Assembly (NCBI GenBank): GCA_038065955.1
Contig: JBBTPY010000001.1
Location: 1,890-65,889, forward strand
Direction: 5' to 3'
DNA: 64,000 nucleotides
From: Patescibacteria group bacterium
GTDB lineage: Bacteria; Patescibacteriota; Minisyncoccia; UBA6257; UBA9933
Position numbers and translations under genes: made by a program. Positions 8,439 through 40,500 of this stretch are shown here, piece by piece. The notes under the pieces were generated by a model, which saw only the letters and a list, made by a program, of their open reading frames with translations, was not told the origin of the DNA and ran no database searches. Each line of letters opens with the position of its first letter. The stretch's first letter is position 1.

Positions 8439-9932
8439 TTAATTTCCTCGCTGTTCGGGCTGGCCGCCGCGGATTTCCCGATATTTATTTTTATATTTTT
8501 CAATTATTTCTTCAACTTCTTTATTTGAAATTTCCACTCGTAAAAGGTCAATGGCATTTATAGTGTCGTAAATATCAAGTTTGTTTTCAAGCTTATAAAT
8601 GGCATCGCGCCAAAGAATCGCTTTTTCATATTCGCCTTTTAAAGTCGCTTCCTTTTCTAATCGCTTCATCATATTAATAAAAGCCCAATAAACTCCTTCT
8701 TCGGCGCCCCCGCGGCCGATAGTTCTGTCCTTAAAAGGAATGCGAATAATGGATTTTTGTTCCTTCATCATCTGTCTGATTTTCCCGGTTCGCTGCCAAT
8801 TAAAAGCGGTAGTTATTATTTTTTCATAATAGTTGCGCGCTTCTTCAAAATTTTTTTTAGAAACATCGGGAATATGTCTCATTGTATCAAGCAACCGATA
8901 CGCGCCCGCTTCAATCATTTCAAGACTCCACCACGGCTTAGCCGAAGCCCACCAAAAATGGTCGCTTGACAGCGCCAAATCAGTTTTTTCTCTAACAAGA
9001 ACGTATCGCGGATTATTTTTATCCATCGCGTAAACTTCTTTAAGAATAAGTTCCGTAAATTCTCTTTGCCACTTATGAATTATATTTCCGGAATCAGCCC
9101 ATGAAAGAAATTGATTGTTTTCTTCAATGTCTTTTCGGCTTGAAGCCCAAGTTGATTTTACCGGCAAAACTTCTTTAATCTCGCCATAATAAGAAAGAAT
9201 GTCGGAAATTTTAATTAATTCAAATTCCGGCGCGTCAAAAACGTCAAAAATCATTTTTTCCAAACCGGGGCGATGATGGCCGAATGTTTCACCGTCCATC
9301 GCCGTCAAAACATAACGGCCGCTTTTCAAGTCTTGAGCCATCGCTTCAAAAAGCGATTCGCGAGAACGGACAACGGCGCTCATGATAAGATTGCTCAAAC
9401 GCCGCTCGCGGAAAAAAACCTTAAGATTGCCGCCGGCAATTTTATAAATTTTTTTATAATCAACGCGTTCAATATAACCGTCATACGCGATTTCGTCCAA
9501 AATAATCCATTCAAAACCCAGTGAAGAAATAATAGCGGGCAGATTTTCGCTATAAGCCATTTCCGGCGGGAAAAATCCCCGCGGTTTGTAAGCGCCGCCT
9601 AAAAAAAACTTATTGGTTTCATCGTTGATTTTTACCTGCCTGATAATTTCATCCTCGCTTAAAAACGGCAAAAGCGCGTGATATTTTGTGGAAGAAGTAA
9701 ACTCAATTCTATTTTCTTTTCCTAAATCGCGCAAAATATCAATAAGGTCTTTATATCCGTATTTGTCGAAAAGCTCGAAAAGAGCGCCGCTTATATTTAA
9801 AGTAAGGTTTACGCGTTTGTGTTTTTTTAATCCTTCAAGAAGAGGACGATAACTTTGGGCGACAATAGCTTCAAGAACATCCGGTTGTTGTTCCGCCGGC
9901 TGATAAATATGTAAAAAATTCGCCCAATACAT
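8439..9932 (-). CDS. glycoside hydrolase family 57 protein (alpha-glucan processing)
   Basis: N-terminal WANFLHIYQP (HxHQP-type GH57 signature), EWIILDE region; adjacent to glgA. Confidence 0.65.
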   Translation of the reverse strand: MYWANFLHIYQPAEQQPDVLEAIVAQSYRPLLEGLKKHKRVNLTLNISGALFELFDKYGYKDLIDILRDLGKENRIEFTSSTKYHALLPFLSEDEIIRQVKINDETNKFFLGGAYKPRGFFPPEMAYSENLPAIISSLGFEWIILDEIAYDGYIERVDYKKIYKIAGGNLKVFFRERRLSNLIMSAVVRSRESLFEAMAQDLKSGRYVLTAMDGETFGHHRPGLEKMIFDVFDAPEFELIKISDILSYYGEIKEVLPVKSTWASSRKDIEENNQFLSWADSGNIIHKWQREFTELILKEVYAMDKNNPRYVLVREKTDLALSSDHFWWASAKPWWSLEMIEAGAYRLLDTMRHIPDVSKKNFEEARNYYEKIITTAFNWQRTGKIRQMMKEQKSIIRIPFKDRTIGRGGAEEGVYWAFINMMKRLEKEATLKGEYEKAILWRDAIYKLENKLDIYDTINAIDLLRVEISNKEVEEIIEKYKNKYREIRGGQPEQRGN

Positions 9933-20550: not shown

Positions 20551-21010
20551 ATCATACTATCTGGCTCCCCGGGTAGGATGGTTCGACAAGCTCACCATTT
20601 TTACCTACCCTAAAGACATATCGCCAATCTCACGGCTTTTACTCAGCTTTTTCAATAATTCCTTATCGCTGTTAATTAAAGCTTTCTTTTTTGCGATGGA
20701 CCACTTTTTAATTTGCTTTTCTCGTTTTTCAGCAACTATTCTTTTTTGATATTCCTCTTTATATACAAGCTTTATATCAGAAAACTTTTTAGTGTAAAAA
20801 GATTCTCTTCGTTTATGTTGAGTTAATCGTCTTTCAATATTATCGGTAACACCGACATAAAAAGTTTTCTGGTCGCAAAAAAGAATATACACAGCCCAGG
20901 ACATATCATAATTATATTGTAAAAGCCCTGAGCTTGTCGAAGGGCTCCCCGGGTAGGATGGTTCGACAAGCTCACCATTTTTACCTACCCCAAAGACATA
21001 TCGCCAATCT
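20551..21010 (-). mobile_element. GIY-YIG nuclease cassette flanked by 69-bp direct repeats derived from the tRNA-Asn 3' end
   Basis: ggctccccgggtaggatggttcgacaagctcaccatttttacctaccc(t/c)aaagacatatcgccaatctc occurs at 20551-20619 and 20941-21009 (one mismatch). Both copy the acceptor and T-stem strand of the adjacent tRNA-Asn with an insertion in the T-loop. Confidence 0.6.
20605..20904 (-). CDS. GIY-YIG domain nuclease (UPF0213-like, 99 aa)
   Basis: MSWAVYILFCDQKTFYVGVTDNIERRLTQHK matches the GIY-x10-YIG...R...H motif. Start set at the internal Met; the longer ORF in the track reads through the repeat. Confidence 0.7.
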   Translation of the reverse strand: MSWAVYILFCDQKTFYVGVTDNIERRLTQHKRRESFYTKKFSDIKLVYKEEYQKRIVAEKREKQIKKWSIAKKKALINSDKELLKKLSKSREIGDMSLG

Positions 21011-21059
21011 CTTTTTCTATTCATAATTATATTGTAAAAGCCCTGAGCTTGTCGAAGGG

Positions 21060-21131
21060 CTCCCCGGGTAGGATTCGAACCTACGACCAAGTGCTTAACA
21101 GGCACCTGCGCTACCACTGCGCTACCGGGGA
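21060..21131 (-). tRNA. tRNA-Asn (anticodon GTT)
   Basis: Manual fold: acceptor TCCCCGG/CCGGGGA, D-arm GCGC-AGTGGTA-GCGC, anticodon loop CTGTTAA, T-arm GTAGG-TTCGAAT-CCTAC, discriminator G, then CC. Confidence 0.85.
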
Positions 21132-21233
21132 ATGCTTGCCCCGCATAAAGCTTCGCTTTTGTGCGGAGTTTAATTGTCAATATTCTATCGCTGACAAAAA
21201 TCAGTTTAGCAAAAATCAAAAAAATATGCAATA

Positions 21234-33475: not shown

Positions 33476-33499
33476 GTTTAATTTCCCTCAATTTGCGGT

Positions 33500-33696
33500 G
33501 TCTGTTTGAAAATATCCCTGCCTGCCTGCCGGCAGGCAGGTCCCCCCGAACCCTTGCCTGCCCGACGAATAGGCGGGAACCGGAGCGGAAAGCATGCCCC
33601 GTAGTGAACGCGGAGCGTTCTACTACTGGGAGACGATTTTCCGCCAGAGGCGGATCTGCCTCAGACATGACAAGTTTTTCTTTAGCGGCAAATTCT
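33500..33696. other. GC-rich noncoding islet (about 60% GC in a roughly one-third-GC genome) with a 24-bp palindrome
   Basis: No credible ORF (only R/P/A-rich overlapping frames). Contains (CCTG)3CCGG(CAGG)2 at 33517-33540 and a motif gacgatttc..aagtttttctttRgcggcaaattctt repeated at about 34395. Confidence 0.5.
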
Positions 33697-33743
33697 TCAA
33701 AAAGAAAGGGGCACTACCTTTCTTTTTGAAAATTAGTGCCCCT
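33697..33743 (-). terminator. rho-independent terminator of the NUDIX gene
   Basis: 9-bp stem ggggcacta/tagtgcccc followed by UUUCUUUUU on the minus transcript. Confidence 0.6.
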
Positions 33744-33748
33744 ACTTG

Positions 33749-34267
33749 CTAACCGTGACGATATCGCTTGATATTTAAGAAACGCTTTACAATTTCCGAT
33801 TCATCAAAATCTGTTCGCTTCATACGTCTTCCTTGTTTCTTCATTTGTGTAATAAGCCATCGCGCCAGTTTCCACTCGAGAGTGCTTCCTTTTCCAAAAT
33901 GTCCCGTCCGCGTCTCGGCAGAGATAATCCATTTCGGATCCTGTGCGATTGGAGTACAGAGAAAATAGAGAGTGGCTTTCTGAAGCATCGCACCTTCCCA
34001 ATTCCGAAACGAGCTTTCAAGAGAACCGAGATATGCGATAACGCGAGCTTTCATTCCGAATTCTTCTTTGAGGCCGCGTGCGAGTGCCCCCTCAAGTGAT
34101 TCGTATGGTTTCAAGGTTTTCCGCATAAGAAGCACAAATTCAGGGTTAGTGTTGCCTTTCGGAAAATGATGGCAATAAATCTCTCCTTTCCGATTGACTA
34201 CTATCGCGCCAACCGAAAGATGATATGGCGAACGCCTTGTGCCGATGAAATAGTGTAATTTTTTCAT
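33749..34267 (-). CDS. NUDIX hydrolase
   Basis: NUDIX box GALARGLKEEFGM (Gx5Ex7REuxEExGu pattern); GC content visibly above the genome average. Confidence 0.7.
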   Translation of the reverse strand: MKKLHYFIGTRRSPYHLSVGAIVVNRKGEIYCHHFPKGNTNPEFVLLMRKTLKPYESLEGALARGLKEEFGMKARVIAYLGSLESSFRNWEGAMLQKATLYFLCTPIAQDPKWIISAETRTGHFGKGSTLEWKLARWLITQMKKQGRRMKRTDFDESEIVKRFLNIKRYRHG

Positions 34268-34438
34268 GCGTTTTACTCCTTTCTTTTTCTTTGTTAAGTT
34301 GCGACCTTTATTATATATGAAAATTTTCTTTTACCAAAATGTGGTTCGAGCCGATATTTTTAACTAGCTCTTTGGCAGTTTTTGCCTCGCACAGCGAGAC
34401 GACGATTTCAAGTTTTTCTTTGGCGGCAAATTCTTATA

Positions 34439-34978
34439 TTATTCTATTCCTTTGGCTAAATTTTTCAAACCATTTGTTCCTTCGTAAAAATCTTTAGCCC
34501 AAAGTATTCGGTCAAAATCTCGTAGCGAAAAATTATATTTACGAGCCAATCTTTTACATTTTCCCAAATATTCAAAATATGTAGAGATTTTTGCGGTTGG
34601 GTTTCCGGCTATTTCCTCACCAAAGTTTTTCAGGGACGCACAAGCCCGATAATCTGCAACCGTAAATTCATCAGGATAGCATACGGTCAAAATCGCGGAG
34701 GCCATGGGTATACCGATACTAGGGATTGAAGTAAGAATATTGATTTTCTCTTCGAGCGATTTGGCTCGAAACACTTCTGATGTAATTGCCAAAATAGTTT
34801 TTCTGCTTTTCTCAATTCCTCTACTGACATTCGTTTTCGCTCGGTTGGATTTCCAAATTATAATTGCAAAAAATTCTTCGGGAGTTAGATAACCTCGTTT
34901 CTGAAAATTTTGGCTCACATCGTTAAATAGATAATTTTCTAAGAAATAGTATTTTAAAAATTTTTCTAAATCATTCAT
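34439..34978 (-). CDS. hypothetical protein with helix-hairpin-helix (HhH-GPD-like) motif
   Basis: LTSIPSIGIPMASAILTVCYPDEFTVADYRA aligns with the EndoIII-type L..LPGIG..TA..IL....P.D.H..R pattern; only 179 aa. Confidence 0.35.
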   Translation of the reverse strand: MNDLEKFLKYYFLENYLFNDVSQNFQKRGYLTPEEFFAIIIWKSNRAKTNVSRGIEKSRKTILAITSEVFRAKSLEEKINILTSIPSIGIPMASAILTVCYPDEFTVADYRACASLKNFGEEIAGNPTAKISTYFEYLGKCKRLARKYNFSLRDFDRILWAKDFYEGTNGLKNLAKGIE

Positions 34979-34982
34979 ATTT

Positions 34983-35600
34983 TTATTTCTTTGCTATTAC
35001 TACGAATTTATTAAAACCAAACTCTTCTTTGCTTTCTGCTCGCCTAGAAAACTCGACCAAAATGGAAAATCCTATTTTATTGAGAATTTCTTTGATTTCC
35101 TTAGATGACATAATATTAAGAAAAATTTTTTCGTCCGGCTTTAGCGGTTCGGCTAGAAGTACTTCTTGCGAGTCTCCTTCTTGGATTCCAATATAAATAA
35201 CTCCTTTGGGTTTTAGCAATTTATAAAAATTACCAACCGTTTTATCAATATCTTTTTTGGGAATATGAATAAGCGAAAAAGAAGCAATAATGCCGTCAAA
35301 AGTATTTGGCTTAAAATTTAATTTACGTATGTCAGCTTTTTTGAAATGTACTTTCGGATTTTTCTTTCTTGCTATTTCAAGAATTCTTTCAGAAATATCA
35401 ACCCCGATTACGTCAAAATCTTTTGAGATAATATAAGCAACATCCACTCCTGGCCCACAGCCTGCATCTAAAATTTTTCCTCCTTTCTTAATCAACTTTA
35501 GAAAATCATCTATGTTATCAGAAGGTTCATTAAATTTGTCAGCATAAGAAACACTTATCTCGTCATATACACTTGCAGTTAATTTGGTTTTATCTTTCAT
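34983..35600 (-). CDS. class I SAM-dependent methyltransferase (small-molecule/protein type, not a DNA MTase)
   Basis: Motif I ILDAGCGPGVD, motif II DVIGVD; no DPPY/NPPY. Confidence 0.7.
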   Translation of the reverse strand: MKDKTKLTASVYDEISVSYADKFNEPSDNIDDFLKLIKKGGKILDAGCGPGVDVAYIISKDFDVIGVDISERILEIARKKNPKVHFKKADIRKLNFKPNTFDGIIASFSLIHIPKKDIDKTVGNFYKLLKPKGVIYIGIQEGDSQEVLLAEPLKPDEKIFLNIMSSKEIKEILNKIGFSILVEFSRRAESKEEFGFNKFVVIAKK

Positions 35601-35604
35601 GGGA

Positions 35605-35817
35605 TTATTTCATTAAATCATCAATTGAAACGCCCAGTCCTCTTGCGATTTTTGCCATAGTTTCAATTGTAGGGTTAGGCGTTGCGCCAGATTCAATTTT
35701 AATAATCACATTGTAAGCAATATCAGCCAGCTTTGAGAGCTTATCCTGTGAAATGCCTTGTTTCTGCCTGTATTTCTTAATGTTCTTTGCAATTGTTGGT
35801 AATTCTTTTGACTTCAT
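35605..35817 (-). CDS. XRE-family HTH transcriptional regulator
   Basis: IKKYRQKQGISQDKLSKLADIAYNVIIKIESG is a Cro/C1-type HTH; 70 aa. Confidence 0.8.
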   Translation of the reverse strand: MKSKELPTIAKNIKKYRQKQGISQDKLSKLADIAYNVIIKIESGATPNPTIETMAKIARGLGVSIDDLMK

Positions 35818-35837
35818 AGTATAATTATACTAGTATA
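35818..35837. promoter_or_regulatory. candidate autoregulatory operator of the XRE gene
   Basis: Overlapping perfect palindromes agtataattatact (35818-35831) and tatactagtata (35826-35837) abut the start codon. Confidence 0.4.
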
Positions 35838-36101
35838 GATAGCGAGATAAGTTTTACTACTATAACTTTACCAAAAATTATGAATTTAATCAATAAGAAT
35901 TCAAAAAGCCCGCTTCTGGCGTTCCGCTTTGCGGAACAAAGGCAAAAAATTTGATTTTGAACCGAAAATCGGCTGGCGAGCCCGCGTAGCGGGCGAGCCA
36001 ATGACTGCATTTCCTAACTGGCGGTATGTATTTGACAAAGTTCGAATGTATTTCGGACAAAAAATACCGCCAATAGAAACTTCACGATTTGAAAGGGTTG
36101 C

Positions 36102-37442
36102 TCAATGGCTCCGCTTGTTTTGCGCCCCCGCAACAGTAGAATCTGACTGCGCGCGGAATTCGGCATCTTTTATTAATACATCCGGATGCACCCGGAAAGT
36201 ACGCTCGTTCCAGCCGAAAAGATACAAACCCGAAAGCCGCCTGACGCGTGAAAGCGCGACATAGCCCTGCCCAAATTCAAATACATTACTTAAATCCATA
36301 GCCGCCTCGTCCAAACTCATGCCCTGACTCTTATGTACCGTGATTGCCCAAGCGAGACGAAGCGGCAATTGAGAAATTCGCGCGCGGATATTGCCGTCCT
36401 CTTCCATCGACCAATCCATCGACTCAACCTTAATCCATCTTCCATTCCGCGTCTTAACAGTTGGATAGCCGCTGTGTTTATCAAATTCTTCAACCACGCC
36501 GAGCGTGCCATTTACGAAACTTCCTTTCTGATTATTCTTTGTGAACATCACCGCCGCGCCAACTTTGAGATAAAGCATCTCCGGCGAAAGACACCCTCTC
36601 TTAAGCGCGGAAACAAGCGCGTCCGGGCCTTGCGAAGACATAGTGAATACTCGCGGTTTGCCGGAAAGTTTAGAGAGCACCTCGTTATTTACGCGATCCA
36701 CATCGGCATTATGCGAAAATAGTTTCGGTACGCCGTCCGGCGCGGCATGAGGATCAATTTTTCTTGTTTCAATGCGGCTCAAGTGATCGCTGTCAAAAAT
36801 ATTATTCCGAATCGCCGAGAGCAGAACGAGAAAATTACTGTCATCCTGCCGGTACTGTTCGGTGAGATAACAGACGGTTGGGTTTGCGCGTTTCCACGCG
36901 GGAGAGTCATAAGCAAAACGAGCCGGCGGTTCTTCTCGGCCCAAGGCTGATCCGCCTTCGGCGGAAATGAGCGCCGTTTGCGCATCGTCTCCAATTTCTG
37001 TTTTTACAATCGGCGGCAATTGGAAAAAGTCGCCGACTAAAACAATTTGAACGCCGCCGAACGGCTCCGAACTCTGTTTTATTTCGCGACATACGGCATC
37101 AACCATGGATAGTGTTTCGGGAGAAAGCATGGAAACTTCGTCTATAATAAGTATTTTGGAGCGCTGGACGCGTTTTGCGATGCGTCTATTTGACGCGATT
37201 TTATTAAGACCATATTTGTCCAATTTTGTTTTAATTCCTATACCGCTCCAAGAGTGGATTGTCATCCCACCTATATGCGTCGCGGCAATGCCGGTTGAGG
37301 CCGTAATCGCCGGCTCAATGCCATGCGCGCGCGAATATGCCGCATATTCATTGATAGTATGCGTCTTGCCGGATCCGGGCTCGCCTGTTAAAAAAACATT
37401 TGCGCCGGTCTTCAATATTGACAGCGCTTGGGATTGGGTCAT
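36102..37442 (-). CDS. Pif1/RecD-like SF1B DNA helicase
   Basis: Walker A GEPGSGKT, DEVSM (Walker B), VGDFFQLPP, C-terminal AITVHKSQGMSLD..GQGYVALSRVR; about 50% GC; start overlaps the upstream stop (TAATG). Confidence 0.8.
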   Translation of the reverse strand: MTQSQALSILKTGANVFLTGEPGSGKTHTINEYAAYSRAHGIEPAITASTGIAATHIGGMTIHSWSGIGIKTKLDKYGLNKIASNRRIAKRVQRSKILIIDEVSMLSPETLSMVDAVCREIKQSSEPFGGVQIVLVGDFFQLPPIVKTEIGDDAQTALISAEGGSALGREEPPARFAYDSPAWKRANPTVCYLTEQYRQDDSNFLVLLSAIRNNIFDSDHLSRIETRKIDPHAAPDGVPKLFSHNADVDRVNNEVLSKLSGKPRVFTMSSQGPDALVSALKRGCLSPEMLYLKVGAAVMFTKNNQKGSFVNGTLGVVEEFDKHSGYPTVKTRNGRWIKVESMDWSMEEDGNIRARISQLPLRLAWAITVHKSQGMSLDEAAMDLSNVFEFGQGYVALSRVRRLSGLYLFGWNERTFRVHPDVLIKDAEFRAQSDSTVAGAQNKRSH

Positions 37443-38296
37443 TAAATTTCTAAATTATAAAAATAGATATCTTGTCCGTAACCTCCAACGCCGAGATACT
37501 CCGCTTGTCCTTTTAAAATGGCCTCAAATGGTTTGCACGCAAAGCAACCCCCGTCCCCGCGAGGACAATTAAATGCTTTTTTCTCTCGCGCAACTTTCAC
37601 TTGCATCGCAATTTCAAGAACTTTTTTTCTGGCTTCATCGATATCGGGTAAAATCATATCAACGGGTTTGTCGTCTCTATCAAGATACCAATACGCCGCG
37701 CCGGAAATTTTACGCTTTTGCAAGGCATTCAAAAGTAAAAGATAAATTGGAAGCTGAAGAGAATCTCCGCCTTCATTATGTTTGCCCGTTTTAAAATCAA
37801 TAACGCGAATGCTATCATCTTGCTCAATATATTCCAACCAGTCAATGCGTCCGTTTAAAATTATATTTTCTTCTTCGGAAAGAAAAAAATTTGGCGCCAT
37901 GCCGTTATGGCCTTCTTTGAGGCGTATTATTTTTCGAACGATTGGCCCCGGATTTTTTATAACCCGTTCTATCATCGCTTTGCCACGAGCTTTTATTTCA
38001 GATTCCTCAGTATCATTCTTAAAGCCCCCTTTTTTTCCCGATACATCGTTCCATGCCTTTTCAAAGTCCGCCAAAAGATCGCGCTTGGTTCTTTTATTAA
38101 AAGGAATGTTTTTTAAAGGCTCAAGAGTAGAATGAACCGCCTGGCCAAGCGAAAGCGTCGGATTCACAATATTTATTTTTCGTCCCGTTTTGGGATCTTT
38201 ATAAACATTGCGCAAATAGTACGCCCGCGGGCACTTTAAAAAATCCCCCATGGAAGAATGCGATACCCATATTGCCGTGTATTTATCTTGAGACAT
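37442..38296 (-). CDS. Cas4-like PD-(D/E)XK nuclease with Fe-S cysteine cluster
   Basis: N-terminal Cys (FLKCPRAYYL), central IDFKTGK, C-terminal CPRGDGGCFACKP (C-x5-C-x2-C), the Cas4/AddB nuclease-domain arrangement. Confidence 0.65.
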   Translation of the reverse strand: MSQDKYTAIWVSHSSMGDFLKCPRAYYLRNVYKDPKTGRKINIVNPTLSLGQAVHSTLEPLKNIPFNKRTKRDLLADFEKAWNDVSGKKGGFKNDTEESEIKARGKAMIERVIKNPGPIVRKIIRLKEGHNGMAPNFFLSEEENIILNGRIDWLEYIEQDDSIRVIDFKTGKHNEGGDSLQLPIYLLLLNALQKRKISGAAYWYLDRDDKPVDMILPDIDEARKKVLEIAMQVKVAREKKAFNCPRGDGGCFACKPFEAILKGQAEYLGVGGYGQDIYFYNLEI

Positions 38297-38306
38297 TTTT
38301 ACTCGC

Positions 38307-39797
38307 TTAAATTAAATTTTTTAAAGTTTTCCAAATTGCGTACATGGCATAGGTGTCAAGCCCGCAGTAAATCTTTAAGTCATTAATGGCCTTCTCCTTT
38401 TCTACCGCGTCAAAAGAGCCGTTTGTAATTTTATTCCAAGTCTCCGCCGCATTTCCTCCTTCCTGTATTTCAAGTTCTTTATATGATAATTCGGGGGCAA
38501 GAACAGGCAAAATGTTTTTGATAGAGGTTTTTCCCTTAAAATCAGGATGTATAAAATGTTGTTCAGTAAAAATATCCCTAATATCAATAATTCTATTATT
38601 TAAATCCTCTAAAAAAATTTTGTATTCAGGATTGCGCTCCGCAAGTTCTTTGTTTCTCCCCTTTTCAAAAGGCTTGTACCACACTACAACAGCCCCATTA
38701 CTTGGGAGATTTTTCCGTAAGGCTTCAATAATCGCTTCATCGGGGTTTTTATTCTCTGTAAAAATAAACTCTGAATGGGTTGGTTCTATTTCATCCTGTT
38801 TAAAAATATGAAGTGAAAATTGAAATGGTATTTGATTAAACGGGCCATATCCGGTAAATCTCGGGATGGCCGCCGGAAAAGTTTCATAATCCAAAAAAGA
38901 AACCTGGTTGGAAATAACACTTAAAAAATTATCAATCTCCTGTTTATCAATAAAAGTCTTCCCTGATTGTGCGGCGTCAACTTGATTTCGTTGTTTGTCG
39001 CTTAATTTGAATTCTTTAGGAATATCTTGTACTGAAAAAATACCACTGTCAATAAGTTCCCTAAGTTTCTTTTTTGACTGGCCAATGCGAGAAATATCGT
39101 GGACGCTATATTCTGGGACTTCTGGATTGGCGTGCTGAAAAGTTGAGCAATGGTTTGATCTGCCTTTATAGATACACGGACAAGAACCTTTCGGCTCTGA
39201 ATCCTGCGAGATATATTTTAATGCTTCTGCCGCCTCTGTATTAACGCTGGCGGCAATACTTTCCACTTCAGCGCTCACGTCAACAATCTTAAAAAGTCCT
39301 TCTATATTCAACTCGCCGGAACGAATATATTCTGAATTAAGATGAATAAGGTGCGCTTTATTTATTTTCAGGCCACACTTCCTAAGTAAATTTACCTGAA
39401 AAGCCAAATCGTGATAATGCGCTTTTTCATCAATACTACGCGTTGATTTCACTTCGTATATCGAATATCCCTGCGCCACTGATTCAAACTTTAAAATATC
39501 AACGGCGGCCAAATAGTTGTCTTTAATAAAAATTGGCTGAAATAGTATTTCTTGTTTTTTTGAGATGAAATCTTTTGTAATTTTTTGTGATTCCTCGCCT
39601 CTTCCTTCAATTAAAATTCCGGCTGGAAATAATTTTCTCGCTTCCAATTCAACTTCATTGCCCGTTTCTATAATTGATTTCTCAAACCCCGACAGTTCCG
39701 ATTGAAAATATATGTCCGGCTTACGGATTTTGTACCAAACGTTTTTCGGACATTCACGAAATAAAACATAGTCCGTTTTGGATAATATGACTTTCAT
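38307..39797 (-). CDS. DUF2779-family protein (N-terminal Cas4-like nuclease fused to C-terminal RNase H-like exonuclease)
   Basis: Start LSKTDYVLFRECPKNVWYK typical of DUF2779, central SCPCIYKGRSNHC, C-terminal FLDYETF; 10-nt gap to the next gene. Confidence 0.55.
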   Translation of the reverse strand: MKVILSKTDYVLFRECPKNVWYKIRKPDIYFQSELSGFEKSIIETGNEVELEARKLFPAGILIEGRGEESQKITKDFISKKQEILFQPIFIKDNYLAAVDILKFESVAQGYSIYEVKSTRSIDEKAHYHDLAFQVNLLRKCGLKINKAHLIHLNSEYIRSGELNIEGLFKIVDVSAEVESIAASVNTEAAEALKYISQDSEPKGSCPCIYKGRSNHCSTFQHANPEVPEYSVHDISRIGQSKKKLRELIDSGIFSVQDIPKEFKLSDKQRNQVDAAQSGKTFIDKQEIDNFLSVISNQVSFLDYETFPAAIPRFTGYGPFNQIPFQFSLHIFKQDEIEPTHSEFIFTENKNPDEAIIEALRKNLPSNGAVVVWYKPFEKGRNKELAERNPEYKIFLEDLNNRIIDIRDIFTEQHFIHPDFKGKTSIKNILPVLAPELSYKELEIQEGGNAAETWNKITNGSFDAVEKEKAINDLKIYCGLDTYAMYAIWKTLKNLI

Positions 39798-40100
39798 AAA
39801 TGTTGGCTAAGTTATCCAACTACTGACTCCCACGCTTCAAATATAGATACTAAATTCATACACGCATTATATCTCAACGACCGCCCCTCATCAAATTGCT
39901 CTCTGGAAAAATCGCCTGAAAATCCCTACCGCGTCCTTCCGAAGCGCTTACAGAAGCTGGCGCGAAGGAGGATAATCCTTATTGCCGAGCGGACGCTTTC
40001 GTTCCCCATCAAAAATGCTTGGATTCTCGCGGGGAAATACCATGCCGAGGCGCGAAGCGCCGAGGCAACATCCTCCCCAAAATGGGATTTAGATAAAATG

Positions 40101-40185
40101 CGGAGGGTACAGGATTTGAACCTGTGATGCCTTTCGGCATACTCGCTTTCCAAGCGAGCGCACTAGACCACTATGCGAACCCTCC
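40101..40185 (-). tRNA. tRNA-Ser (anticodon GGA), class II with long variable arm
   Basis: Manual fold: acceptor GGAGGGT/ACCCTCC, anticodon loop TTGGAAA, variable hairpin ATGCC-GAAA-GGCAT, T-arm ACAGG-TTCAAAT-CCTGT. Confidence 0.8.
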
Positions 40186-40481
40186 ATATTTCCTCTTTAA
40201 TTCTTCTCGTTTATAACCATTTTTATATTCTAACTCAAGTTTAATGGATTTCTCTTCTGAAAAAGTCGCTATTTTTTCTAGAAGAATAAATGGTTTTCTG
40301 GACTTCGTAGATCTAACCTTGCCAGAATTATGTTCATTGAATCTTCTTTTAAAATCCTTTGTCCTGCCAATGTATAGATTATTATCTTTCAAACTTTTCA
40401 GAATGTAGACGAAATACATAATTTATAAACGCACTAGACCCCTGCCTGCCTGCCGGCAGGCAGGACTATGCGAACCCTCCA
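40157..40481 (-). mobile_element. GIY-YIG cassette inserted at the 5' end of tRNA-Ser with duplication of tRNA nucleotides 1-27
   Basis: cgcactagacc + actatgcgaaccctcc (tRNA 5' part) recurs at 40430-40480, interrupted by the 24-bp palindrome cctgcctgcctgccggcaggcagg; the GIY-YIG ORF lies between the copies and ends inside the tRNA. Confidence 0.6.
40171..40419 (-). CDS. GIY-YIG domain nuclease (82 aa)
   Basis: MYFVYILKSLKDNNLYIGRTKDFKRRFNEHN matches GIY-YIG; last 15 nt are tRNA-Ser nucleotides 1-15 (GGAGGGTTCGCATAG encodes GGFA-stop). Confidence 0.7.
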   Translation of the reverse strand: MYFVYILKSLKDNNLYIGRTKDFKRRFNEHNSGKVRSTKSRKPFILLEKIATFSEEKSIKLELEYKNGYKREELKRKYGGFA

Positions 40482-40500
40482 TAAACTTTTACATCTTATC

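Follow-up and report, generated by a model that had tools for sequence, protein, structure and literature searches.

Does the compact gene trio that encodes a Pif1-family helicase, a stand-alone Cas4/RecB-family nuclease and a DUF2779 protein in a groundwater Patescibacterium belong to an acquired island, perhaps with anti-phage function, or to the DNA-processing equipment of the chromosome itself? We asked this for a window of 64,000 nucleotides (nt) of a Patescibacteria group bacterium (assembly GCA_038065955.1, contig JBBTPY010000001.1, positions 1,890 to 65,889 of the forward strand; all coordinates below are those of the window unless given with a locus label beginning with L), in which a first-pass annotation had described the segment from 33.5 to 40.5 kb as an accessory island. 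Patescibacteria have tiny genomes with reduced repertoires and their DNA-end processing is poorly known; RecB-family nucleases pair with helicases as a rule (AddAB, AdnAB, RecBCD, and Dna2). We think it rather likely that in Parcubacteria-type Patescibacteria the trio forms a chromosomal DNA-processing operon, inherited for the most part vertically, that would perform a split form of Dna2/AddAB-like end processing, and that the region is not one island.

The operon and its three proteins

The window is a core chromosomal segment with genes for DnaE, HolB, MreB, RRF, RseP, HtpX, DnaG and GatA as well as alanyl-, threonyl-, and aspartyl/asparaginyl-type tRNA synthetases, and contigs identical or 99.97% identical to it originate from Hainich aquifer metagenomes. 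On its minus strand, HtpX and a GGDEF gene are followed by a GIY-YIG open reading frame (ORF), tRNA-Ser(gga), and the genes for DUF2779, nuclease and Pif1, and then by genes for an XRE regulator, an S-adenosylmethionine (SAM) methyltransferase, a 179-aa (amino acid) protein and a NUDIX-like protein, a GC-rich non-coding islet and a patatin gene. The ORFs of the seven consecutive genes from DUF2779 to NUDIX were confirmed at their expected positions, and the flanking patatin, GIY-YIG and GGDEF genes are recognized by Pfam. The domain calls made at first reading are borne out by Pfam matches to NUDIX (weak), class-I SAM methyltransferase, XRE HTH_3, PIF1/Pif1_2B, PDDEXK_1/Cas4 and DUF2779; the exception is the 179-aa "HhH" protein, which has no Pfam match of its own and a family profile that is weakly Ogg2-type.

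The proposal of a tight operon that combines two Cas4/RecB-type nuclease modules with a 5'-3' SF1B (Pif1) helicase stands, and this arrangement recurs in relatives. The helicase ATG overlaps the nuclease stop codon (TAATG at 37442), and a 10-nt spacer, GCGAGTAAAA, separates the DUF2779 stop codon from the nuclease start.

The nuclease (37442..38296, minus strand; 284 aa) matches PF12705 (E 8.7e-22; 78.7 bits, cut-off 22) and PF01930 (E 2.2e-6; 28.3 bits, cut-off 22.7), and these matches, its motifs and a RecB-nuclease fold place it in the Cas4/RecB-family PD-(D/E)XK superfamily. Its catalytic residues D152 and D167-x-K169 are accompanied by a QxxxY motif (Q181, Y185), and the motifs are conserved across 121 sequences. 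Four cysteines (C22, C244, C251, and C254) form a predicted iron-sulfur (Fe-S) site; the pattern is C244-x6-C251-x2-C254 plus the N-terminal C22 and not C-x5-C-x2-C as initially read. An AlphaFold2 model built from the 121-sequence alignment reached a predicted local distance difference test (pLDDT) score of 92.8; a first model from a 15-sequence alignment was poor (pLDDT 62.5) and was discarded. The best Foldseek matches are ACE1 (template-modelling [TM] score 0.60-0.65), the AdnA nuclease domain, AddB and AddA, RecE and the RecB nuclease, while canonical Cas4 and EXO5 match the model weakly (EXO5 insignificantly, with E 0.15). As a CRISPR-associated Cas4 the protein scores 33.7 bits on TIGR00372 against a cut-off of 65, and we found no CRISPR-like array within the window and no cas genes among the neighbors of the trio.

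The DUF2779 protein (38307..39797, minus strand; 496 aa) is a member of PF11074 by its score (131.8 bits, cut-off 23.3), its two domains and its catalytic residues. The N-terminal Cas4-like PD-(D/E)XK domain has D100/E115/K117 and four conserved cysteines (C16, C206, C208, and C217), and PADLOC's Cas4 model matches residues 11-182; the C-terminal domain is a DEDD-type RNase H-like 3'-5' exonuclease in which the DEDD(y) residues are kept (D303/E305, D405, Y477, and D481). The catalytic residues and the four cysteines are invariant in the family alignment. The family had previously been described as Cas4-like plus DEDDh, with 3'-5' exonuclease function (PMC13621843; PMC3985635), and its homologue MMSYN1_0389 is an uncharacterised, quasi-essential protein of JCVI-syn3.0 (PMC13621843). 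The window protein shares this two-nuclease architecture and the conserved catalytic residues with MMSYN1_0389 of the DUF2779/UU173 family, but it retains all four Fe-S cysteines where MMSYN1_0389 keeps two (PMC13621843), falls below the NCBIfam cut-off for the UU173 subfamily (75 vs 225 bits) and, unlike MMSYN1_0389, lies in an operon with a nuclease-helicase pair. When the profiles of the nuclease and the DUF2779 protein were compared with hhalign, the catalytic D...(D/E)xK segments aligned without significance (probability 0.13%, E 0.44), so that paralogy of the two Cas4-like modules is not demonstrated.

The helicase (36102..37442, minus strand; 446 aa) is a true member of the PIF1 family with a complete core. 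It matches PF05970 (110.2 bits, cut-off 25.9) and the Pif1_2B domain PF21530 (28.2 bits, cut-off 23.9), its profile aligns over residues 4-424 with yeast, human and bacterial PIF1 structures (E 1.9e-90 to 1e-52), and the Walker A motif GEPGSGKT and the motif DEVSM are visible in the alignment. What it lacks is a C-terminal tail of about 70-80 aa (YLPWD...GAIRSRLxKLG) found in its closest orthologues (L091, L093, L099, and L021); tblastn did not find this tail elsewhere in the window. Since more distant orthologues are likewise tail-less and the helicase core is intact, the window protein is probably functional. The loss coincides with a rearrangement breakpoint (36126..36127) at which homology with related nuclease-Pif1 loci ends: blastn homology to L091, L093 and L094 stops at 36127, and the tblastn match to the tails of L091 and L093 stops at 36126. 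With all relatives, DNA homology is limited to the pair of nuclease and Pif1, and in some it reaches into part of DUF2779; because it covers only part of the trio and ends inside the segment, the segment is composite.

Possible expression signals of the operon are less distinct. A promoter-like site (TTGATG-17-TATAAT, 39866..39894, minus strand) with 10 of 12 consensus matches lies about 70 nt upstream of the DUF2779 start codon and is suggestive only, as the promoter scan yields no more sites than shuffled sequence; the same holds for the terminator scan. One or more hairpins followed by a T-run 3' of Pif1 (35900..35940, minus strand) are, from reading the sequence, a candidate terminator of the trio operon. 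This hairpin is included, along with several GC-rich hairpins, in a minus-strand stretch (35890-36101) that folds significantly better than its shuffles (z = -3.1); the 221 nt that precede DUF2779 show no such gain over shuffled sequence (z = -0.04).

Linkage and inheritance of the three families

The association of the three genes was followed through their relatives. For the nuclease, at least 583 metagenome stretches matched and 80 loci of 58-91% identity were kept; 30 nuclease loci were informative, with 3 kb or more of sequence on either side. In 14 of these 30 loci Pif1 is no farther than 3 kb from the nuclease, and in 9 it is directly adjacent, and DUF2779 lies within 3 kb in 5, all from close relatives. 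These frequencies of 47% and 17% are far above a chance level that we roughly estimate at <1% for a genome of about 1 Mb. The nuclease and Pif1 genes are 12 nt apart in L091 and L093, in otherwise unrelated contexts. All three families recur in differing orders (L015, L030, L034, L101, and L143), with variants such as DUF2779-gap-nuclease-Pif1, DUF2779-DnaQ-like gene-Pif1, an RRM gene between nuclease and Pif1, or Pif1 upstream of the nuclease. DUF2779 has relatives in at least 546 stretches from species-representative genomes, mostly of Patescibacteria with some Hyphomicrobium and other phyla; in the 80 loci kept for comparison the protein is 38-65% identical (the best database homologues reach 66%), and 5 of them have the nuclease or Pif1 nearby (L015, L021, L030, L034, and L050). 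The best explanation of this pattern, as judged from gene neighborhoods, is that the nuclease-Pif1 pair is an evolutionarily stable unit and DUF2779 a looser third partner.

Elsewhere, recurrent neighbors of DUF2779 are dnaG, rpoD, gyrB, pheS/pheT, DnaQ-like exonucleases and a DsbA-like gene. The order htpX-tRNA-Ser(gga) followed by DUF2779 is shared between the window and three other species (L025, L029, and L057), and in two of these (L029 and L057) DUF2779 precedes ORFs read as pheS and pheT. This shared synteny argues that the place of DUF2779 beside the tRNA gene is ancestral and not a product of integration.

Base composition had been the argument for recent horizontal acquisition, with GC (guanine plus cytosine) contents of 50-58% in the helicase and NUDIX genes set against about 30% in neighboring genes. 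These figures were overstated: the window has 38.4% GC (gene mean 39.1 +/- 4.4%), and NUDIX at 44.5% (z = 1.2) is no outlier. The region is indeed heterogeneous, with the methyltransferase at 31.4%, but the sole real outlier among its genes is Pif1 (49.6%, z = 2.4; 300-nt peaks of 52%), while the nuclease (40.4%) and DUF2779 (36.4%) are at background. The Pif1 orthologue exceeds the remainder of its own locus in GC content in each of 28 related loci, by 4.8 points on average, and five close orthologues have helicase cores of 45.9-49.4% GC in genomes of 38-41%, compared to the 49.6% of the window gene. Whole-gene values of the orthologues are lower because of the AT-rich C-terminal tail (34-42% GC) that the window gene lacks. 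From these comparisons, the high GC content of Pif1 belongs to the gene family and, being common to the orthologues, is no evidence of recent transfer. The idea of a recently arrived foreign Pif1 allele was rejected, with aligned orthologue cores differing by 0-4 GC points. Recent acquisition is thus not supported, given the shared GC content of Pif1, the background composition of the nucleases, the conserved htpX-tRNA-Ser-DUF2779 order and the high conservation of the trio proteins across Patescibacteria. GC-rich genes that adjoin a tRNA gene can give the appearance of an island; in this case the compositional signal is inherited with the gene family.

Several observations on Pif1 loci stand apart. 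Two co-occurring Hainich contigs (L098 6381-8108 and L099 8847-10415) give equal phmmer E-values for DUF2779 and the nuclease, and their Pif1 genes diverge after about the first 430 nt, with window identities of 53-71% in L098 vs 86-93% in L099. This difference indicates mosaic or recombinant Pif1 alleles within one population. In one clade (L117, L118, L119, L122, L126, L127, L128, and L130), a conserved predicted membrane protein of about 95 aa (ending in ...AKIWNWLHR) is encoded directly upstream of Pif1, between Pif1 and the nuclease. Finally, L091 has, on the strand opposite to Pif1 and about 280 nt downstream of it, a tRNA-Ser(cga) gene (9120-9207) that is 80% identical to the tRNA-Ser(gga) of the window, and the nuclease-Pif1 module may be loosely associated with tRNA-Ser genes.

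Known systems and competing explanations

AddAB consists of AddA, a UvrD-like SF1A helicase-nuclease, and AddB, a protein of about 1,100 aa that joins an inactive helicase to an Fe-S nuclease. The first-pass annotation, which did not recognize the gene order as a described system, is supported in that curated thresholds for AddB, RecD, RecD2 and Cas4 were not reached: the nuclease scores 16.1 bits on addB_Gpos (vs 903.7) and 19.8 on rexB (vs 718), the helicase scores 62.1 bits on TIGR01447 (vs 310) and 72.8 on TIGR01448 (vs 500), and there is neither RecB nor RecC within the locus nor an SF1A helicase in the operon. The likeness to AdnAB, AddAB and RecBCD lies in the combination of a RecB-family PD-(D/E)XK nuclease module and an SF1 helicase motor; the model of the nuclease can be superposed on AdnA (TMq 0.50-0.56), AddB/AddA (0.35-0.45) and RecB nuclease domains, and its predicted 4-Cys Fe-S site resembles that of AddB, here with the spacing C-x6-C-x2-C. 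Unlike in those complexes, the nuclease is free-standing at 284 aa and not fused to a helicase, and the only motor is the SF1B helicase Pif1 (5'-3'), without an SF1A UvrD-like motor and without RecC or an inactive-helicase scaffold. Eukaryotic Dna2, considered together with the Pif1/Dna2 or Pif1/EXO5 partnerships, likewise joins a PD-(D/E)XK nuclease of the Fe-S type to an SF1B helicase of 5'-3' polarity that works on 5' flaps or ends. Its helicase is Upf1-like and not of the Pif1 type; nuclease and helicase are separate polypeptides in the window, unlike in Dna2, and Dna2 is not among the Foldseek matches. The closest match by both sequence (E 1e-3) and structure is ACE1, a stand-alone Cas4-family protein of similar size that has been described as an endonuclease for single-stranded DNA, accessory to a partner protein and homologous to nuclease domains of repair complexes (PMC12094033). 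Identity to ACE1 is 14-16%, and the partner here is a Pif1 helicase instead of a prokaryotic Argonaute (pAgo); no Argonaute-sized or PIWI gene adjoins the trio, which sets it apart from the pAgo-ACE1 (APACE1) arrangement. Solo Cas4 proteins from the Candidate Phyla Radiation (CPR) are also encoded outside CRISPR loci in small-genome bacteria; they were reported as mainly vertically inherited without an arms-race signature, and an uncharacterised role in repair or defence has been proposed (PMC5704561, Hudaiberdiev et al. 2017). That study links pfam12705 proteins to UvrD-like and COG1205 helicases, and the terms "RecD" and "Pif1" are absent from its text. Our literature searches for Pif1 with Patescibacteria, or for Patescibacteria with RecBCD/AddAB, found nothing relevant.

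By analogy with these systems, Pif1 would load on a 5' single-stranded tail or flap, translocate 5'->3' and unwind the duplex, while the translationally coupled Fe-S nuclease would cut the displaced or tracked strand, making the pair a split analogue of Dna2 or of the AdnAB/AddAB nuclease modules. DUF2779 would add its 3'-5' exonuclease and a second PD-(D/E)XK activity and trim the opposite strand. In genomes whose repair repertoires are reduced, such a machine could resect ends, remove flaps or repair replication forks. Of the two functions initially suggested, end resection is thus the best-supported reading, with nuclease-Pif1 as the conserved core, and an anti-phage function is unsupported. 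A bolder version, in which nuclease and Pif1 are the Patescibacterial substitute for RecBCD/AddAB/AdnAB in a split, Dna2-like 5'-strand resection and DUF2779 is a physical partner that trims 3'-5', is conceivable if doubtful; were it true, the quasi-essential DUF2779 protein of JCVI-syn3.0 would gain a role in end or flap processing.

Three other explanations compete with an inherited DNA-processing operon. One holds that the three genes are independent housekeeping enzymes that are neighbors by chance, i.e., an accessory replicative or G4 helicase, a solo Cas4 and an unrelated DUF2779 exonuclease. Indeed, 75 of the 80 species loci with DUF2779 have neither partner nearby, 16 of the 30 informative nuclease loci show no Pif1 gene within 3 kb, and overall synteny is poorly conserved among Patescibacterial genomes. 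We nevertheless regard this explanation as unlikely in view of linkage well beyond the chance estimate, the start/stop overlap here and the 12-nt gap in L091 and L093, the recurrence of the families in several different orders, and the usual pairing of RecB-family nucleases with helicases. Another possibility, an uncatalogued helicase-nuclease system that degrades the DNA ends of phages or plasmids like RecBCD or Hachiman/Gabija-type systems, appears quite improbable to us. It could draw on the similarity of the nuclease to ACE1, an Argonaute-associated immune nuclease, on a PADLOC match to Aga_Cas4-like_Nuc (E 3.8e-10), on the resemblance of the Pif1 P-loop region to candidate models PDC-S68 and RecD-like, on the adjoining accessory cassettes with their XRE regulator and mobile GIY-YIG elements, and on the variation of Pif1 alleles among co-occurring strains. 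However, all PADLOC-DB 2.0 matches are partial and belong to unrelated systems (the PDC-S68 P-loop region, Aga_Cas4-like_Nuc, and Cas4), no multi-gene system was found, and there is no pAgo near the trio and no CRISPR array in the window. The proteins are very highly conserved and widely distributed in Patescibacteria, their neighbors are housekeeping genes, also in other species, with partly conserved synteny, and solo Cas4 of the CPR is reported to show mainly vertical inheritance and no arms-race signature (PMC5704561). The viral contigs scanned contained one distant relative of the nuclease, four relatives of DUF2779 (<=34% identity) and relatives of Pif1 (<=51%); none combined two of the three families, and the combination was seen in no viral contig or island-like context.

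Very improbable, in our view, is the remaining explanation that the whole 33.5-40.5 kb segment is a recent genomic island that integrated at tRNA-Ser and is bounded by direct repeats. Its appeal comes from a 39-nt repeat with a palindrome that lies exactly at both ends and nowhere else in the 64 kb, from the tRNA-Ser and GIY-YIG nuclease genes at one end, from a Pif1 GC content 11 points above background, and from breaks in several independent assemblies no more than about 65 nt away from the 3' end of the tRNA. Yet the segment encodes no integrase, recombinase or transposase, DUF2779 and the nuclease have background GC while the excess of Pif1 is shared by its orthologues, and the htpX-tRNA-Ser(gga)-DUF2779 synteny is older than the species. 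Moreover, the repeat consists of the palindrome plus 8 bases and is not a duplicated tRNA 3' end, and homology with relatives stops inside the segment at 36127, as expected for a composite. Of the hallmarks of a tRNA-associated island, the segment has flanking repeats of 39 nt, essentially a palindromic mini-element, and an atypical composition in Pif1 alone, where it is a family trait; it has no integrase. The inherited DNA-processing operon that we favor has to accommodate contrary evidence as well. The compared loci are not phylogenetically independent, and our counts therefore overstate the number of independent events. Linkage is not obligatory, as Pif1 is missing from the surrounding 3 kb in 14 of 22 distant nuclease loci (about 58-66% identity) and neither partner is near DUF2779 in 75 of the 80 kept loci, and ACE1, to which the nuclease is structurally closest, serves as an accessory protein in immunity. 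Pif1 alleles have apparently been exchanged between co-occurring strains (L098 vs L099), and viral contigs carry relatives of Pif1 (up to 51% identity), so that there is some horizontal flow.

If confirmed as a conserved pairing, a stand-alone Fe-S RecB/Cas4-type nuclease with Pif1 would be a new architecture for helicase-coupled resection. It would also give bacterial Pif1 helicases, whose physiological role has stood open since 2011 (PMC3113762), a concrete partner, and the recurrent linkage of DUF2779 gives a testable starting point for a family quasi-essential to a minimal synthetic cell.

Accessory cassettes and elements at tRNA genes

What lies beyond the breakpoint at 36126-36127, which removed the Pif1 tail, is best explained as small accessory cassettes, XRE-methyltransferase-Ogg2-like and then NUDIX. 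In this respect the proposed accessory island survives in reduced form: only these four genes behave as accessory DNA, whereas the trio looks inherited. As a unit, the part from XRE to NUDIX has no counterpart in any related locus examined. All of its genes are on the minus strand, and the first three are separated by 4-nt gaps: an XRE-family HTH regulator (35605..35817; 70 aa; PF01381, E 1.4e-15), a class-I SAM methyltransferase of the UbiE/Methyltransf_25 type by Pfam (34983..35600; 205 aa) as variable middle gene, and the Ogg2-like HhH protein (34439..34978; 179 aa), whose family profile matches PDB entries 9o02, 3knt and 3fhf with E values of about 2e-3. The Ogg2-like protein has the conserved Asp D109, while the position that we take to be that of the catalytic Lys in Ogg2 motifs appears to be replaced. 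Its family comprises 196 proteins found in Patescibacteria, two of which match PF22175 (Ogg-HhH). In two other Patescibacterial species, the loci L257 (5079-6631) and L258 (5318-6558) have an HNH nuclease in the methyltransferase slot before the Ogg2-like gene, with an XRE gene in the same position upstream of the HNH and Ogg-like homologues in L257, and both contigs end just after the Ogg2-like gene, where a conserved 27-nt motif and a GC-rich tail follow the cassette. This arrangement of XRE, variable enzyme and Ogg2-like protein may be a mobile or defence-like module.

The NUDIX-like hydrolase (33749..34267, minus strand; 172 aa; PF00293, E 1.2e-5) has its own promoter-like site and terminator hairpin and is bracketed by a 27-nt direct repeat, CAAGTTTTTCTTTRGCGGCAAATTCTT (plus strand; 33671-33697 and 34409-34435). 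Its position between the two copies of the 27-nt motif suggests that it was inserted secondarily, as a cassette of 738 bp. The motif after the Ogg2-like gene and part of the GC-rich islet are common to L257, and the islet segment ctttccgctccggttc also follows the Ogg-like gene in this other species. The islet itself (33490..33700, minus strand) is non-coding and structured, with several GC-rich hairpins and a significant fold z-score of -3.9 against shuffles. Rfam searches at the gathering threshold and at E <= 1 returned only tRNAs in or near GC-rich islets; the stretches 35890-36101 and 33490-33700 were unmatched.

At the opposite end of the segment, tRNA-Ser(gga) (40100..40185, minus strand; ARAGORN and Rfam), part of the conserved htpX-tRNA-Ser-...-DUF2779 neighborhood, abuts a separate GIY-YIG mini-cassette (40171..40483, minus strand; PF01541, E 1.2e-15). 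The last codons of its 82-aa ORF (40171-40419) are the 5' end of the tRNA gene, and a duplicate of tRNA nt 1-27 upstream of the ORF (40430-40480) is split after nt 16 by a 24-nt palindrome, with 19 nt detected as duplicate. A second GIY-YIG gene (20563-21132) is located at tRNA-Asn between 69-nt repeats, in which the 3' end of the tRNA is included, and in L031 (3793-4122) a GIY-YIG ORF likewise abuts tRNA-Asn. From this arrangement, the GIY-YIG ORFs are most plausibly tiny cassettes with tRNA genes as targets, independent of the trio, which accounts better for what had been taken as an integration landmark. Two contigs from other samples, L002 and L003, stop at window positions 40063 and 40034, and contigs L004-L010 begin 63-256 nt upstream of the DUF2779 start codon.

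The palindrome, CCTGCCTGCCGGCAGGCAGGCAGG, occurs exactly twice in the 64 kb, in the islet before patatin (33517-33540) and in the tRNA duplicate (40441-40464). With 8 further matching bases it makes up the 39-nt direct repeat (33516-33554 and 40440-40478). The sequence AGGGTTCG beside the right-hand palindrome was considered as a tRNA-derived att site and dropped, since its counterpart GGAAGGGGGTGGGGGGA in L257 suggests a coincidental resemblance. Of the 90 loci L001-L090, only L001-L003, contigs from the same species, carry the palindrome, and it is possibly a palindromic mini-element peculiar to this species.

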